A stretch of 59,146 nt of DNA, counting the filler, from Candidatus Woesearchaeota archaeon (GTDB lineage: Archaea; Nanobdellota; Nanobdellia; Woesearchaeales; GCA-2685855), in NCBI GenBank assembly GCA_002685855.1. It is 4 parts of 4 records of this genome, joined end to end, with 100 filler letters (N's around TTAATTAATTAA, not from the genome) between each part and the next. Parts side by side here need not be neighbours in the genome. Positions count along the whole stretch, not along the records: positions 32,566 to 48,542 come from NYYS01000023.1; 3 more parts are not named here. One strand, 5' to 3'. The notes beneath the pieces are model-generated. The model was not told the origin of the DNA and searched no databases. It saw nothing but the letters and a program-made list of their open reading frames with translations. The translations under genes were made by a program, and so were the position numbers. This document shows positions 37,605 through 46,924 of this stretch, piece by piece. How positions within the stretch are numbered: the stretch's first letter is position 1; the number at the start of each line of letters is the position of its first letter.

Positions 37605-37964
37605 ATGACCAAACAACCCATCACAACCCTCAAAGAGGCCCAGGCCCTTGTCAAAAACTTTGCCCTCAGAAACAACTGGAAAGACACCCCCAACATCGAC
37701 AAGTTCGACCACCTCCACGAAGAGCTCCTTGAGATGTCTCAGCACCTCCGCTACAAAACAGAAGAACAAAGAATTCAAATCATCCAGGAAAAAAGAGAAG
37801 AATTCAAAGACGGAATAGGAGACCTCTTCTTCGCCCTCTGCCGACTCTCCAACCAGCTCAACATCGACATCGAGGAAGCCTTCAACACAGTAAAAGACGA
37901 AATCCTCGAAAAATACGATCACAAACAACAAGAAAACAATCTTACAAAAGACCAAGGGCTCTGA
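37605..37964 (+). CDS. MazG-like NTP pyrophosphohydrolase
   Basis: HLHEELLEM...DGIGDLFFAL..L.N.L.IDIEEAF. Confidence 0.8.
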   Translation: MTKQPITTLKEAQALVKNFALRNNWKDTPNIDKFDHLHEELLEMSQHLRYKTEEQRIQIIQEKREEFKDGIGDLFFALCRLSNQLNIDIEEAFNTVKDEILEKYDHKQQENNLTKDQGL

Positions 37965-39008: not shown

Positions 39009-39635
39009 ATGCCACAAACCACGAAAATTCTCCAACTCCTCAAACACCACTACCCCAAAGCAAAATGCACCCTCACACACAATTCAGCCTTCCAACTCTT
39101 AGTTGCCACAATCCTCTCCGCCCAATGTACAGATAAAAGAGTAAACCTTGTCACAAAAACCCTCTTCAAAAAATACAAAACAGCTAACGACTACGCTACC
39201 GCTCATATGAACGAACTCGAACAAGACATCCGATCAACCGGCTTCTACAGAAACAAAGCCAAAAACATCCAAAAAACAGCCCAAATCCTAAAAAACAAAC
39301 CCGTCCCAAACACAATGGAAGAACTCATCCAACTCCCCGGCGTCGCCAGAAAAACAGCAAATGTCCTATTAGGAACCTGGTACAAAAAAAACAGCGGAAT
39401 CGTTGTTGACACCCACGTAGCAAGAATCAGCCAAAGACTAAACCTCACACAACAATCCAACCCAGAAAAAATAGAACAAGATCTCATGAAAATTATCCCA
39501 CAAACAGAATACACCCAATTCTCCCACCAACTCATCCAGCACGGAAGAACCCTCTGCAAAGCACAAACCCCCCAATGCAAGAATTGTTTCCTCCTTCCTC
39601 TTTGCCCTGCAGGGAAAAGAACCATAACTATATAA
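39009..39635 (+). CDS. nth: endonuclease III
   Basis: LLVATILSAQCTD, HhH LPGVARKTANV, VDTHV, C-x6-C-x2-C-x5-C Fe-S motif. Confidence 0.96.
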   Translation: MPQTTKILQLLKHHYPKAKCTLTHNSAFQLLVATILSAQCTDKRVNLVTKTLFKKYKTANDYATAHMNELEQDIRSTGFYRNKAKNIQKTAQILKNKPVPNTMEELIQLPGVARKTANVLLGTWYKKNSGIVVDTHVARISQRLNLTQQSNPEKIEQDLMKIIPQTEYTQFSHQLIQHGRTLCKAQTPQCKNCFLLPLCPAGKRTITI

Positions 39636-41710: not shown

Positions 41711-42910
41711 ATGGGGAGAGTGGATATAAACGGCGCACGAATAGAAGAACAAGATCTTGAAATGATGCGCGGTTCCCTCACCATTCTTAAACACGTCTTT
41801 TCACTTGTACGTTCTACACCGCTCGAAGACGCAATGAGAAACGTAAAAGACATGGAAACCAAAATTGCACAACGATACAGTAGAAAAGACGGAAAAGATA
41901 CCATCTACATCGATGTTATTGCAGAAGAAGCAATCTCTGTTGGATCCGAAGGATCCCGAGGTCACATCGGATTCTTTCACGGCATCTACGATAAAAGCGG
42001 CACCGTCATCACAGAAGAACGCGGAAAAGTAGGAGAAATAGCAATCGGCGCACACACCCCTGTCATCATCTCAGACCCCATAGACAGATCATCCTATATG
42101 AAACAAGTTGTAGAGTTCTATAGAGACCAAAAAGTTGGTGACAGAAAACTCACAGTCAACGACACAATAGGAGAAGCATTTGATTTCAAAGTAAATGCAA
42201 TCGGCCCTCACAAAGCAATGCGTGAAGGACCCAACTCATCCGTAACCTTACTAAAAGACAACCGAATAGTCTACAGCCTCATTCTCAACCTCTTCAACGG
42301 CGACATCTATATCGCATCCCCACGCGGAGTCTATAAAGGTGACATCAGAAAGGTAACAAGACCCTCAGATATAGACTCAGAAATCCGATTCAATAAAGAC
42401 GAACTCAGAGAGATGCTCTGCTACACCACAGATCAAGGAAAATACGAAAGCAACAGAAAAGGAACCCATCTTCGTTTCTTCGACCTCTACAAAAATGCAC
42501 CCTCCCCCACCGGACCCCTACGCTTCACCTACCTCATAAAAACAGAAGAAGATCCTCCCCTGCCCGTCGGCGTCATCGCACACAACGGAGAAAAAATACA
42601 AGAAGCCCTCCCTAATATCGCAATAGCATTCTTCTCCAACCAGATGGTCGGCTACAAACTCTACTGCGACCGCGGCTCACAAGAATTCCGTGCAGAACGA
42701 CTCATGACACCCTCTTTGCAAGACTCCATCTACAACGGAGACATCCACACAAAAGGAATCAAACTCGCATTCCTCAGCAACTACACCTACCCCTCAGAAT
42801 TCAGAGACACAACCGCCTTCTGCCACATAGACAACGACTTCGCCTTCACCGTCCTCGAAGGAATGCGCCACCAAGAATACTGTGAACGGATATTGAGACC
42901 TTCTTCGTAG
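41711..42910 (+). CDS. divergent inositol monophosphatase/FBPase (FIG) superfamily protein
   Basis: IDVIAEEAI, VITEE, IISDPIDRS (compare DPIDGT). Confidence 0.55.
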   Translation: MGRVDINGARIEEQDLEMMRGSLTILKHVFSLVRSTPLEDAMRNVKDMETKIAQRYSRKDGKDTIYIDVIAEEAISVGSEGSRGHIGFFHGIYDKSGTVITEERGKVGEIAIGAHTPVIISDPIDRSSYMKQVVEFYRDQKVGDRKLTVNDTIGEAFDFKVNAIGPHKAMREGPNSSVTLLKDNRIVYSLILNLFNGDIYIASPRGVYKGDIRKVTRPSDIDSEIRFNKDELREMLCYTTDQGKYESNRKGTHLRFFDLYKNAPSPTGPLRFTYLIKTEEDPPLPVGVIAHNGEKIQEALPNIAIAFFSNQMVGYKLYCDRGSQEFRAERLMTPSLQDSIYNGDIHTKGIKLAFLSNYTYPSEFRDTTAFCHIDNDFAFTVLEGMRHQEYCERILRPSS

Positions 42911-43017
42911 ATAAGATTCTGGGCCATTTAAAAGCAACTCATTCTGCCCAAAAGTCACAAAGAATCTGAACATATTATTTACACAAATGATTTAAATCAC
43001 TCCACATTATGTTCTTT

Positions 43018-44337
43018 ATGGTTGACGTTTTATTAATAAATTCGCCTTTGTTCAGAAATAAAGTAACAGGATACACAGAAGATTCATTACCTCCTCTAGG
43101 TTTAGCATATATAGGAACAGAACTAAAAAAAAAGGGATTTGATGTTGATCTACTTGATACTGTATCAAAAAACATGCCTTTAGATGAAATAATAAAATAT
43201 ATTGAATCTCTAAAACCAAGATTTACAGGATTAAACATATTTTCAACAAATTTCGACCTTGTTCAAGAGATTTTAGAAAACATAAACACAAAAACACATT
43301 TTCTGATAGGAGGACAAGTTACTAAAAACACGCACCAGAGAATAATACAATTCAAAACAGAAAATCCTTTAGATGTAGTGTTGGGAGACGGAGAATATAT
43401 AACTCCTGAACTAGTAGAAGGAGATCCCAAAGAACAACCTCTCTATTTTGAAGACCAAAGACGCGTTTTTAGAGTTGATGCAAGTTCAACATATTTCCCT
43501 CAGGATATTTCAAAACTAGGCATCGATCGTTCATTTTTTGAGAATGAACCTATTGAAAACAAATTTGGACAAACCGAGGCAAACATTATTACAAGCAGAG
43601 GGTGTATGTATAACTGTGCTTTTTGCGGAGCTGCAAGAAGCCTAAATAAAGGTCTGCCTATAAGAACCCGCTCCGAAGAAAGTATACGAGAAGAAGTAGA
43701 TCAACTGTCGGGATCTTATGAAGGATTAGATAGTATTAGAGTCCTAGATGACCTATTCCTAAGGACTGTGGAGGACATAGACAAAGCAGCCAGGATTTTT
43801 CGAAATACATCCTATTGGAGAACAATGGCTCACGCACTATCTTTTAGAAATGCTCAACAAAACGATTTTCAAACCTTGAGTCGAAGTGGATGTTTTGAAA
43901 TATTTATAGGTATAGAATCAGGATCACAGAAAACCTTAAAAAACATTAACAAGTCACATGATATAGAATATATAAAAAAAACCATAGAAAATTTAGTAAG
44001 TTCAGGAATCCATGTTAAAGGATATTTTATCTATGGATTTCCACAGGAAACCGAAGCAGAAATGGAAGAAACATATACCTTGGCTCAACAATTAAAACAA
44101 CAATCAACAAGATATTCAGGAAATTTTACAGTTAGTGTTTTTCAGTTTAGACCATATCATGGAACAATACTGTATCAAAGAATGGGGGATGATGCCAGAA
44201 CATTACGTTTCAACAGAAATACTAGATTAAAACTTCAAAGAAGATCTCAGTTTAATTTTCATGCAGGTAATTTTAGCAATGCAAGTGATGAAATTGTAGA
44301 ATCTTACGTGAAAAAAACCATGTTATTAAACCAATGA
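43018..44337 (+). CDS. cobalamin-binding radical SAM protein (class B methyltransferase-like)
   Basis: PPLGLAYI B12-binding domain; TSRGCMYNCAFC; DDLF; GIESGSQKTL. Confidence 0.92.
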   Translation: MVDVLLINSPLFRNKVTGYTEDSLPPLGLAYIGTELKKKGFDVDLLDTVSKNMPLDEIIKYIESLKPRFTGLNIFSTNFDLVQEILENINTKTHFLIGGQVTKNTHQRIIQFKTENPLDVVLGDGEYITPELVEGDPKEQPLYFEDQRRVFRVDASSTYFPQDISKLGIDRSFFENEPIENKFGQTEANIITSRGCMYNCAFCGAARSLNKGLPIRTRSEESIREEVDQLSGSYEGLDSIRVLDDLFLRTVEDIDKAARIFRNTSYWRTMAHALSFRNAQQNDFQTLSRSGCFEIFIGIESGSQKTLKNINKSHDIEYIKKTIENLVSSGIHVKGYFIYGFPQETEAEMEETYTLAQQLKQQSTRYSGNFTVSVFQFRPYHGTILYQRMGDDARTLRFNRNTRLKLQRRSQFNFHAGNFSNASDEIVESYVKKTMLLNQ

Positions 44338-44906
44338 TACAAAATATAGGTAATTGTAAGAGATGTGATTTATATAAAAATCAGAGACCTATATTAGATA
44401 CAGTCAAAACAGGAGATGTGATGTGGGTCGGTATATCTGCTAAAGAAACAGAATCTTCCATACATAACCGTCCTCTAGCAGAAAATACTATTACTGGAAA
44501 AATTATTCATCGGATAGAAGACCTGAATCCCCAACTAATATTTTACAAAACAAATCTTGTTAAATGTTTACCCTTAAACAACAAATTAAAAATACGTTAC
44601 CCTGAAACATCAGAAAAAGAATGCTGTTATCCAAATTTCCAGCAAGAACTAATAGAAATAAATCCAAAAATAATTTTTTTACTGGGTAAAAAAACAGCAA
44701 TGTTTATATTATCAAAATACAGTAAAAAAATAACGAAATTCAACACAGATTTCAAATATGTGGCCTATAAACATAAACAGTTTACATTTATTCCTATTCA
44801 CCATCCAGCATACATGTATAAATATAAACAGAAAACGATCCCTATTTACATTAATTCAATCTCATCCATTATGCGAGGAATAACAACTAATGTCCGAAGA
44901 AAATGA
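44334..44906 (+). CDS. uracil-DNA glycosylase superfamily protein (family 4-like, Fe-S)
   Basis: CKRCDL, TNLVKC.P, EKECC, PKIIFLLGK, IHHPAY. Confidence 0.85.
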   Translation: MIQNIGNCKRCDLYKNQRPILDTVKTGDVMWVGISAKETESSIHNRPLAENTITGKIIHRIEDLNPQLIFYKTNLVKCLPLNNKLKIRYPETSEKECCYPNFQQELIEINPKIIFLLGKKTAMFILSKYSKKITKFNTDFKYVAYKHKQFTFIPIHHPAYMYKYKQKTIPIYINSISSIMRGITTNVRRK

Positions 44907-45591
44907 AATCAAAATAAAAATAGTAGATATAAAAAGTTTATCAGAATTAATTAACCTTGTCGAAGAAACATTTAAAATAAACTTCAACACAACAAAAAAA
45001 GATAAAGATGTCTACTATGATCTACCTAATAACTACTATTTCAATCTAAATCACGGATTACGAATAAGAAATGAAAATGAAATTGCATACAAAGCACTAT
45101 ATTATGTTCCTGAAAGAAAACAAAATCCCTGGTTTGTCTTTGAAAAAGAATATGAACTACCAATTTCAAAAGAGAATCTCTTGGAACTATTTACTATCGC
45201 AAACATAAACTGTGATATTGTCCTGAAAAACAGTATCTCGATCGACGAACTTAAAGAAATATTAAAAAAACTCAATTTTATAGAACACATAAAAATAAAT
45301 AAAATAAGACAGATTGCGAAAAACGAACAATATGAACTCTGCATCGACCTCGTGGAAAATTTAGGCCTGTTCCTAGAAATAGAAAGTCATGACGTTGAAA
45401 TTATTGTAGCCATACAAAAAAAGTTACCCTTCAGATATAAAGAGATAAGACATGGATACCCCAATCTCTATGCTAAAGAAATCAAAAAAATCAACATACC
45501 TGACTTCAAAGAAAAATTCCTTCAAAATCCTGAATGGAATTTTCTAAAAGGCCAAAAAGAAATCATAAAAGAACTTCTTAAGAAATCATAA
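44890..45591 (+). CDS. CYTH/triphosphate-tunnel enzyme (class IV adenylate cyclase-like)
   Basis: ENEIK ExExK motif, DVYY, LRIR, KIR, CIDLVENLGLFLEIE, GY. Confidence 0.85.
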   Translation: MSEENEIKIKIVDIKSLSELINLVEETFKINFNTTKKDKDVYYDLPNNYYFNLNHGLRIRNENEIAYKALYYVPERKQNPWFVFEKEYELPISKENLLELFTIANINCDIVLKNSISIDELKEILKKLNFIEHIKINKIRQIAKNEQYELCIDLVENLGLFLEIESHDVEIIVAIQKKLPFRYKEIRHGYPNLYAKEIKKINIPDFKEKFLQNPEWNFLKGQKEIIKELLKKS

Positions 45592-45772: not shown

Positions 45773-46924
45773 ATGGTGATCTCAAACCTAGAAAAATTAT
45801 ACAACAGGTATTTCTTTTCTCCGTTTATGGGACTATTGCTGGGCTCAGAAGCCAAAGAAATCTTGAGGACTGCTGGTGACGCCATTATTGATGCTAAATG
45901 GGAAAAAAGAAATTTCTTTTATAACTCTTTTATTAATGCAGCCTTTGGGAATATTGGTTTTGCACAATTAATCCTTACAAGACGGTGTAATATCAAGTGT
46001 CCGAACTGCAATGTTCCTTTATCCGCAGACTACGAGATGTCTTTGAAGGAATGGAAAAACATTGTTAGGTTGCTTTCTGATCATGTTCAGCCGAGCATAA
46101 TTTCTATTACAGGAGGAGAACCTTTATTACGTAAAGATGATTTGGTAGAAATAATTTCTGATTTTACTGAGAGAGATATTCCTGTCTCTTTGAACACCAA
46201 CGGATTATTGCTAGATGAAACCATACTGCGCGAGCTCCGTGATGCAGGACTCGTATCATTAGCTGTATCTTATGATGGCATCAAACCAAAATCAAGCAGC
46301 AAAGTGATTGAAAATGCAGTTTTAGCAAAATACCTTGGTATTGATACTACGCTTCAAATGACCATATCTGATAGGAACATGCATCTTGCTTACGATATTA
46401 GAGATATAGCATTCAGTCACAATCTCGGATTTAGCCCGTTAGTCATGCAAAATCTGGATGGCATGTTTTCATCGGGCGCATATGATCAACCGAATGAGGA
46501 TTTTGTTAGAAGCTTTTTTAGTGATGTTGTGAATGAAACAAGAAAATTTCTTACAAACAATAATTATAGGAACAGCGTAAAGTACTATGAGTACATCAGA
46601 GACAATTATCCGAGACTCTGGCATTGTGAAAAATATAATTGGCTAATTATTAACGAAGACGGTCGTATGATGCACTGTCAGGAGATTGCACCTTCTGAAT
46701 TCAAATTGGCAGATATTCTTGAAAATCCGAGAGACTTTGTTAAATATCGGCAGGAGAATGCAAAAGATTGTTTGGGTTGCCACTACAATTGTTATTTTGA
46801 ATCAGAGAACCGTGGTTTGGGAGGGCTTGCAGATTTGGTAAAAATGGACTATCGGACCAGAGCCGTCCTTGGCCTTAGAGGAATGAATCTGTTATCCGAA
46901 ACTATCGAGACCAAACAGCTTTAG
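45773..46924 (+). CDS. radical SAM protein with SPASM/Twitch domain
   Basis: CNIKCPNC, ITGGEPLLR, NTNG, DG...CQE...CLGCHYNC. Confidence 0.9.
   Translation: MVISNLEKLYNRYFFSPFMGLLLGSEAKEILRTAGDAIIDAKWEKRNFFYNSFINAAFGNIGFAQLILTRRCNIKCPNCNVPLSADYEMSLKEWKNIVRLLSDHVQPSIISITGGEPLLRKDDLVEIISDFTERDIPVSLNTNGLLLDETILRELRDAGLVSLAVSYDGIKPKSSSKVIENAVLAKYLGIDTTLQMTISDRNMHLAYDIRDIAFSHNLGFSPLVMQNLDGMFSSGAYDQPNEDFVRSFFSDVVNETRKFLTNNNYRNSVKYYEYIRDNYPRLWHCEKYNWLIINEDGRMMHCQEIAPSEFKLADILENPRDFVKYRQENAKDCLGCHYNCYFESENRGLGGLADLVKMDYRTRAVLGLRGMNLLSETIETKQL

Follow-up and report, generated by a model that had tools for sequence, protein, structure and literature searches.

A widespread gene cassette pairing a B12-binding radical SAM enzyme with a uracil-DNA glycosylase-like protein, present in a Woesearchaeota archaeon

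Prokaryotic viperins are radical S-adenosylmethionine (SAM) enzymes that occur with nucleotide kinases in defence contexts (pVip and VakA in PADLOC), and we know of no viperin system that includes a glycosylase. In oxetanocin A biosynthesis OxsB, a radical SAM enzyme with a B12-binding domain, acts on dAMP, dADP and dATP alongside the nucleotide phosphohydrolase OxsA; neither a glycosylase nor a kinase partner is mentioned for OxsB in the available part of the source (PMC9204698). Glycosylases of the uracil-DNA glycosylase (UDG) and helix-hairpin-helix (HhH) folds, such as Brig1, Brig2, Brig3-BapA, Dag1 and Dag2, destroy modified phage DNA, and Brig3 is encoded in an operon with a base-editing enzyme (available parts of 10.1101/2025.10.29.685425 and 10.64898/2026.02.25.707755). 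Here we describe positions 43018-45591 of a 59,146-nt stretch of DNA (hereafter the window) joined from four records of a Candidatus Woesearchaeota archaeon genome, GCA_002685855.1. They encode a B12-domain radical SAM enzyme, a UDG-like protein and a CYTH protein; the first two form the core of a widespread, undescribed cassette.

The three open reading frames (ORFs) lie on the + strand and all overlap, the radical SAM and UDG-like genes by 4 nt (ATGA) and the UDG-like and CYTH genes by 17 nt. The first (43018-44337, 439 aa) encodes a radical SAM enzyme of an uncharacterised family; its start was set at 43018 (MVDV), where the database entry and the two nearest homologues also begin, the first ATG given by the ORF finder being at 43009. 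The second (44334-44906, 190 aa) encodes a UDG-superfamily protein derived from family 4, a predicted DNA glycosylase, and the third (44890-45591, 233 aa) an accessory triphosphate-tunnel protein from a small, patchily distributed archaeal family. Curated Pfam cut-offs were passed in every case (Radical_SAM, 78 bits against 29.5; B12-binding, 50.8 against 32.1; UDG, 45.7; CYTH, 46 against 23.2), and beyond these domains the matches listed for the cassette proteins reached no curated family cut-off. The segment has a GC content of 0.310, the lowest in the 953-kb genome at its length: the genome mean is 0.423 ± 0.025, and none of 1603 segments of equal length is as low. Cytosine occupies 0.13, 0.13 and 0.22 of third codon positions in the radical SAM, UDG-like and CYTH genes respectively, compared with 0.44 in both the upstream gene and valS. 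The overlapping, AT-rich gene trio of the preliminary description of this locus is thus confirmed.

Alignment scans with the radical SAM protein gave at least 128 relatives in GTDB and at least 454 in metagenomes, the best 80 being taken from each, and one in IMG/VR; after removal of duplicates (L082, L083 and L163) and addition of the window, 161 loci were compared. A UDG-like gene is found near the radical SAM gene in 155 of these, directly downstream in 149, divergently upstream in two and elsewhere nearby in four. Five of the other six loci end too early, and the last (L063), in which the radical SAM gene is broken, lacks a UDG-like gene. When the radical SAM proteins were grouped at 90% identity, the neighbours in the resulting 127 groups were UDG-like (122), RmrA-like (62) and PIN-like (62) genes and a membrane protein (41), with thymidylate (dTMP) kinase-like (22), MazG (at least 3) and CYTH (2) genes being rarer. 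For MazG the count is a minimum, since the scan covered 110 proteins (cluster representatives and part of a set of 215 candidate neighbours); MazG genes directly follow the UDG-like gene in L015, L039 and L064. Three natural fusions of the radical SAM and UDG proteins (P0281, P0287 and P0288) were also found among the best 150 matches from a profile search of 1.84 billion representatives. Hence, of the co-occurrence by which the preliminary description proposed to be judged, the radical SAM/UDG-like pair stands, but the trio does not, the two closest genomic relatives of the CYTH gene standing alone. As an aside, fusion P0287 has tryptophan at many conserved glycine positions, suggesting that its host reads TGA as glycine and that the sequence was translated with another code.

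Phyla carrying the cassette include Bacteroidota, Bacillota, Patescibacteria, Campylobacterota and Pseudomonadota. In most Bacteroidota copies an RmrA-like helix-turn-helix/peptidase gene (E 2e-50) and a PIN-like gene, together resembling the RosmerTA pair, are translationally coupled upstream of the radical SAM gene (L016:8386-9985 and 61 other groups). Between the PIN and radical SAM genes in Bacteroidota copies lies an uncharacterised membrane protein of around 260 aa (L025:9156-9968 and 40 other groups), whose soluble part is similar to clusters without a name and shows weak similarity to DUF5919 (score 0.88, a lead only). Defence-type neighbours include Kiwa (L045), DarTG (L035), CBASS (L048), an HNH nuclease (L010) and a type I restriction-modification system (L084).

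Database searching at E ≤ 0.001 gives the radical SAM protein 1951 homologues, of which the top 120 share at least 46% identity with it. Its N-terminal B12-binding Rossmann domain is followed by the radical SAM barrel, and both this architecture and the motifs are those of class B (cobalamin-dependent) radical SAM enzymes. Six motifs are near-invariant in 128 core sequences: CxxxCxxC, GG, G(D/E)GE, DDLF, GIESG and KGYF. The [4Fe-4S] cysteines C196, C200 and C203, encoded at 43603-43626 on the + strand, are present in all 128 and in five of five sequences from the sister clade described below; G98, G123 and E/D126 are likewise found in 128, and G99 in 125. The names of the CxxxCxxC, GG and cobalamin-side GE motifs follow the available part of PMC9204698, according to which class B enzymes that do not methylate, such as OxsB, also exist. 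An AlphaFold2 model (predicted local distance difference test score 85.7) matches TsrM, MgmA, OxsB and AprD4, with template modelling (TM) scores of 0.58-0.66 at 15-19% identity, and there are further fold matches to CysS and TokK. No named NCBIfam radical SAM family (HpnJ, BchE, PhpK, ApyD, AprD4 and others) passes its cut-off among the best 25 of 36 matches, the highest score being 88 bits against a cut-off of 600. Also absent from these 25 is TIGR03916, which we take to be the model for the UdgX-linked repair radical SAM protein. The type of reaction is not readable from motifs, fold or family scores.

Of the described systems, OxsB matches this protein both in sequence (E 2.5e-7) and in fold (TM 0.64); however, the two are only around 16% identical, and OxsB is 744 aa long, with extra domains and a CX4CX2C motif in place of CX3CX2C. 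The viperin systems share the combination of a radical SAM enzyme with a nucleotide kinase, and the kinase of some cassettes matches VakA weakly (E 8.8e-9), but the cassette radical SAM protein has no match to pVip at E 0.01 and carries a B12 domain. In the PADLOC candidate PDC-M51, the radical SAM-like component A is matched by the cassette enzyme (E 1.2e-13) and the kinase-like component B by the cassette kinase (E 2.5e-10). These matches are weak and generic: an unrelated B12 radical SAM protein outscores that of the cassette against component A (54 against 48.7 bits). The Brig and Dag glycosylases resemble the UDG-like protein in fold class and in acting on modified DNA, but the partner of Brig3, BapA, is a glucosyl hydrolase, and the word 'radical' has no occurrence in the main texts of 10.64898/2026.02.25.707755 and 10.1101/2025.10.29.685425. 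The UDG-like protein, by contrast, lies close to family-4 UDG and usually possesses an Fe-S cluster. In the literature searched, the scope of which excluded most subscription papers, no description of a radical SAM gene combined with a glycosylase gene was found; a jumbo-phage genome paper came up with a single mention of each. As the preliminary description had held, comparison with curated families and defence models places the cassette in no named system.

The UDG-like protein has 392 database homologues, and its model has the family-4 fold (TM 0.76 to 4zby). With family 4 (UDGa; 4zbx, 1ui0) and UdgX the protein shares fold (TM 0.76), four Fe-S cysteines and the TN and HP(S/A) motifs, but in this family GLSA replaces GE(A/G)PG, leucine replaces the stacking phenylalanine, and K-x-R-Y-P and Y164 are specific additions. 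In the window copy the Fe-S cysteines (C8, C11, C78 and C98), the base-reading N74 and motif B (H157-P158) are kept, and GISAK (residues 33-37; 44430-44444, + strand) takes the place of GEAPG in an alignment with the Sulfolobus family-4 enzyme 4zbx, in agreement with what had been noticed from the sequence; its isoleucine is a local variant, as the family consensus is GLSA(V/K). Motif A reads G-L/I-S-A/S in all 117 distinct sequences, in none of which is the family-4 GE(A/G)PG found, and G33, S35, P47, N74, R88-Y89-P90, H157-P158 and Y164 are invariant. The four cysteines are kept in 103 of the 117, most having been lost from ten short, Patescibacteria-type proteins; judged from this alignment, the pocket is under stronger constraint than the cluster. 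Nor does loss of GEAPG suggest a dead enzyme, given the invariance of pocket residues S35, N74 and H157. Family-4 models (TIGR00758, 59.8 against 125.3 bits; NF040953, 64.1 against 250) and the UdgX-type TIGR03914 (27 against 189.95) were all failed. S35 occupies a position that serves catalysis in other UDG families, and the glutamate of family-4 motif A, which excludes thymine, has no conserved counterpart here; together these point to a 5-substituted uracil, or thymine analogue, as the predicted target of the glycosylase. In five of five bacterial hosts tested another, better-scoring UDG is present, making the UDG-like protein an extra copy there.

A sister form of the operon has a radical SAM protein around 30% identical (tblastn) and is carried by six Streptomycete plasmids and the temperate Streptomyces phage SF3, with three further contigs, two of them nearly identical, coming from a viral scan. 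Gene order is the same in all ten loci: an AlkA-like gene, the radical SAM gene, a dTMP kinase gene, then a NUDIX (nine) or MazG-like (one) gene; none of the ten has a UDG-like gene. In SF3 the four genes (gp35-gp38, L181:8130-11503) are complete and lie between the lysis genes and the integrase. The sister radical SAM proteins share N73, R241, DDLF, KGY, RPY and R409 with the core clade, residues mostly missing from an unrelated B12 radical SAM protein, and a profile comparison of the two clades gives an E value of about 1e-77. Pfam support for the AlkA-like protein is below cut-off, but with a profile of five sequences all ten PDB matches are 3-methyladenine glycosylases (best E 1e-5). What the slot requires hence appears to be a glycosylase of some kind, not one particular fold. 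Homology between a gene upstream of the Streptomyces operon and the Bacteroidota membrane protein was considered and rejected (hhalign probability 0.3).

One dTMP kinase subfamily is common to the core and sister clades (E 1e-63). It was compared with S. aureus thymidylate kinase at residues that a table of PMC13026990 lists for the catalytic site. Equivalents of R70, R92 and Q101 are kept in 26 of 26 cassette kinases, whilst none of the 26 has an acid at E11 (N in 20, G in 3, S in 2, C in 1) or an aromatic residue at F66 (V in 24, I in 2). The E11 acid presumably binds the 3'-OH, and the loss of both equivalents suggests an altered substrate. The exchange of AlkA for UDG, and of NUDIX for MazG, implies that the slots of the cassette are a radical SAM enzyme and a glycosylase, with or without a kinase and a nucleotide phosphohydrolase. 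The kinase, MazG and NUDIX proteins filling the third slot in relatives fit the nucleotide- or base-modification module, with its logic of making, excising and pool control, that had been suggested for this locus.

In the window this slot is likely occupied by the CYTH protein, whose tunnel residues are intact (E4-N-E6-I-K8, corresponding to EXEXK, R58, R60, K68, K138, R140, E163 and E165). It has 21 homologues and falls short of the class IV adenylate cyclase model CyaB (TIGR00318, 40.3 against 57.95 bits). CYTH genes of this family are present in three of 401 genomes of the order, the other two lying among housekeeping genes with neither radical SAM nor UDG-like neighbours. In one same-order genome, G619, the CYTH protein bears the NCBI label Woesearchaeota, in keeping with a Woesearchaeales-type host. 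The trio as a conserved unit was ruled out, with CYTH adjacent in two of the 127 groups; the second of these (L030) has a distant CYTH gene (E 5.8e-5) across a 163-nt gap, and may be a chance neighbour because it is absent between the same flanking genes in the related L111. CYTH is, we judge by a little over even odds, a local recruit to the phosphohydrolase slot and not a defining part, in view of the overlap, the low GC content shared with the core and the precedent of NUDIX and MazG at the same operon end. Two observations concern the family more widely: in P0248 it is fused to a nucleoside 2-deoxyribosyltransferase domain (PF05014), tying it to nucleotide processing, and in G340 (L167:7528-9641) a 35% identical relative lies 5 nt after a different B12 radical SAM gene with a HAD-like fragment upstream, a second radical SAM-CYTH pairing in the order. 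A CYTH gene beside another B12 radical SAM gene on contig C58 was rejected as unrelated, because it is divergent, belongs to a different CYTH type and lies within a sugar-nucleotide cluster.

We tentatively propose, with a probability of about 0.4, that the cassette is a 'mark and excise' anti-phage system, in which the radical SAM enzyme alters a thymidine nucleotide that is then incorporated into phage DNA and excised by the glycosylase; we infer each chemical step, and the antiviral role from the neighbourhood. The radical SAM enzyme would act on a free dTMP- or dUMP-type nucleotide and would most probably alkylate it at the C5 substituent or close by, though sugar chemistry may also be possible. 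The dedicated dTMP kinase-like enzyme would then raise the product towards the triphosphate, a step that host kinases would serve in the window, where the kinase is absent. Fast-replicating phage DNA would incorporate the product and the glycosylase would make an abasic lesion at each site, whilst in uninfected cells the phosphohydrolase (NUDIX, MazG or here CYTH) would hold down the level of the analogue; expression in Bacteroidota would be gated by a repressor/peptidase of RmrA type. Around one radical SAM enzyme and one atypical dTMP kinase, the glycosylase comes in two unrelated folds and the phosphohydrolase in three, which is most simply read as a sign that the radical SAM enzyme makes an abnormal thymidine nucleotide able to reach DNA. 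Support is drawn from the radical SAM/UDG coupling and fusions, the AlkA exchange, the common dTMP kinase, the alternation of NUDIX and MazG, the extra UDG copy and the conflict context; OxsB with OxsA offers a precedent for the nucleotide chemistry, and the Brig and Dag enzymes one for the excision. Known defence glycosylases only read marks made by the phage. A host that itself places a foreign base in the DNA of its invader, so that a glycosylase of UDG or AlkA fold can shred the marked genome, would represent a new kind of immunity; this reading is, in our estimate, somewhat unlikely.

Several observations weigh against this proposal. Co-occurrence was anchored on the radical SAM gene, and so holds in one direction only; a UDG-anchored search of 401 genomes of the phylum found two carriers, the host and G483 (93% complete), the latter having a UDG-like gene (L187:1498-2064) alone between two housekeeping genes, two other UDGs and no detected radical SAM gene. 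Many cassette neighbours are housekeeping genes, and the defence neighbours were counted with no control for enrichment. In this archaeal host the UDG-like protein is the sole Pfam UDG found, making an ordinary repair role conceivable here. The kinase is absent from 105 of the 127 groups as well as the window, and in three of five hosts tested it is the only Pfam thymidylate kinase, so could simply supply dTDP. AlkA and UDG folds normally take different bases, hence the two clades may make different products, and AprD4, one of the top matches of the radical SAM enzyme, is cobalamin-independent. Viral occurrence of the main clade amounts to one contig, with near absence from lytic-phage collections.

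The fusions fit a radical SAM enzyme that acts on DNA at least as well as one that acts on free nucleotides. The two core enzymes might convert a hypermodified phage thymine into an excisable base, following the logic of Brig3 and BapA (available part of 10.64898/2026.02.25.707755), or the UDG fold might serve as a base-flipping subunit, with the kinase and phosphohydrolases draining or recycling the modified nucleotides of the phage. Such DNA-level editing would account for the near-obligate adjacency (122/127), the dispensable kinase and the solitary gene in G483, but leaves unexplained a specialised anabolic kinase common to both clades, and no DNA-binding domain is recognised by Pfam in the radical SAM protein; we consider it unlikely. 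Similarly unlikely is a toxic or chain-terminating analogue of viperin or oxetanocin type, activated by the kinase, with the glycosylase and phosphohydrolase only protecting the producer. OxsB and the sugar dehydratase AprD4 are among the top structural matches, the kinase lacks the presumed 3'-OH-binding acid and weakly matches VakA and PDC-M51B, and the sister operon resides on Streptomycete plasmids; however, base excision cannot undo a chain terminator, in the main clade no partner is as constant as the glycosylase, which is sometimes fused, and the loci share no conserved exporter.

A role in repair or detoxification but not in defence, through the removal and recycling of an unusual thymine, either damaged or foreign (alkylated, oxidised or a competitor's product), in the manner of the UdgX/radical SAM repair operon, would suit the classic house-cleaning folds of the glycosylase, NUDIX and MazG proteins, the retention of N74 and H157 and the status of the UDG-like protein as the host's sole UDG found. 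It sits poorly with the very patchy spread (1/301 and 2/401 genomes), the AT-richness relative to flanks in 83 of 97 loci, the linkage to RmrA/PIN genes and prophage accessory regions, and the broken copies (L007, L061, L063 and L138), and is distinctly improbable. The gene set of a methylase-type enzyme, dTMP kinase, pyrophosphatase and UDG fold also maps onto the dU/dT axis, and the cassette kinase is the only one found in three of five hosts; an alternative thymidylate route, in which the radical SAM enzyme methylates dUMP to dTMP and the kinase, dUTPase-like MazG/NUDIX and UDG keep uracil out of DNA, would counter uracil-DNA phages or thymidine depletion. We regard this as very improbable, since the AlkA-like replacement misfits uracil, the kinase pocket is non-canonical and the UDG-like protein lacks the family-4 motif A.

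What the parts of the cassette suggest is an undescribed modified nucleotide, together with a glycosylase that recognises it specifically. If the mark and excise proposal were true, it would entail nucleotide chemistry new to radical SAM enzymes and a UDG family of new specificity, and might reveal a natural antiviral nucleoside analogue. Besides the many GTDB and metagenome loci, the sister operon has cultured carriers and a named phage, and, given the UDG/AlkA and NUDIX/MazG/CYTH exchanges, a laboratory strain carrying two to four small genes would suffice to test the hypothesis.

The composition and distribution of the cassette support its mobility and its horizontal acquisition by this archaeon, which the preliminary description had inferred. 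The radical SAM gene is present in one of 301 genomes of the class, the host only. A FastTree tree of 134 rows places the window protein outside the Bacillota and Bacteroidota clades, beside two metagenomic proteins that are 62-64% identical to it; with phyla largely clustered, this tree points to no donor. The pair is AT-richer than its flanks, by a mean of 4.9 points, in 83 of 97 long loci, redundant loci included. The synonymous-codon likelihood of the cassette genes relative to the genome average is ordinary (62nd-94th percentile), giving no support for a foreign origin. The radical SAM gene is split or truncated in L007, L061, L138, L139 and L063, suggesting frequent decay, and in L059, L070 and L156 the pair is divergent or convergent near ORFs that, read by eye, look like Tn7-type transposition genes, with Kiwa-like genes next in L070.

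The cassette sits within one contig (C23), away from the N-filled joins of the window, and a separate public contig, L083, matches it without difference over 3122 nt, a stretch that takes in the junction with the upstream host gene, although this contig may come from the same sample. The sequencing runs containing cassette DNA are marine metagenomes, with no RNA data set listed among them; read depth over the cassette is similar to that of the flanks in run X1, and no joint skipping the cassette was found in the contigs of four runs. No convincing bounding repeats or att sites surround it, and a sigma-70 promoter scan, the model of which does not extend to archaeal promoters, was at chance (16 against 17.6 expected), with no terminators.

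Downstream lies a second, unrelated radical SAM gene with no B12 domain (45773-46924, + strand, 383 aa; GC 0.379, 0.185 C at third codon positions), which was possibly co-inserted but is outside the conserved cassette; the 160 related loci contain no homologue of it. Its match to the viperin model is confined to residues 67-178 and scores 47 bits where the cut-off is 180; the protein has an unusual C-terminal motif of CxxCxxxxCxC type, and the gene is less C-rich than host genes. Upstream, 41711-42910 (+) encodes a 399-aa protein of host-like composition with no Pfam match and a weak fructose-bisphosphatase/inositol-phosphatase match (E 0.002). Also of host-like composition, 3-5 kb upstream of the cassette, are a small MazG-like protein scoring below threshold (37605-37964, +) and an endonuclease III-type HhH-GPD glycosylase (39009-39635, +).

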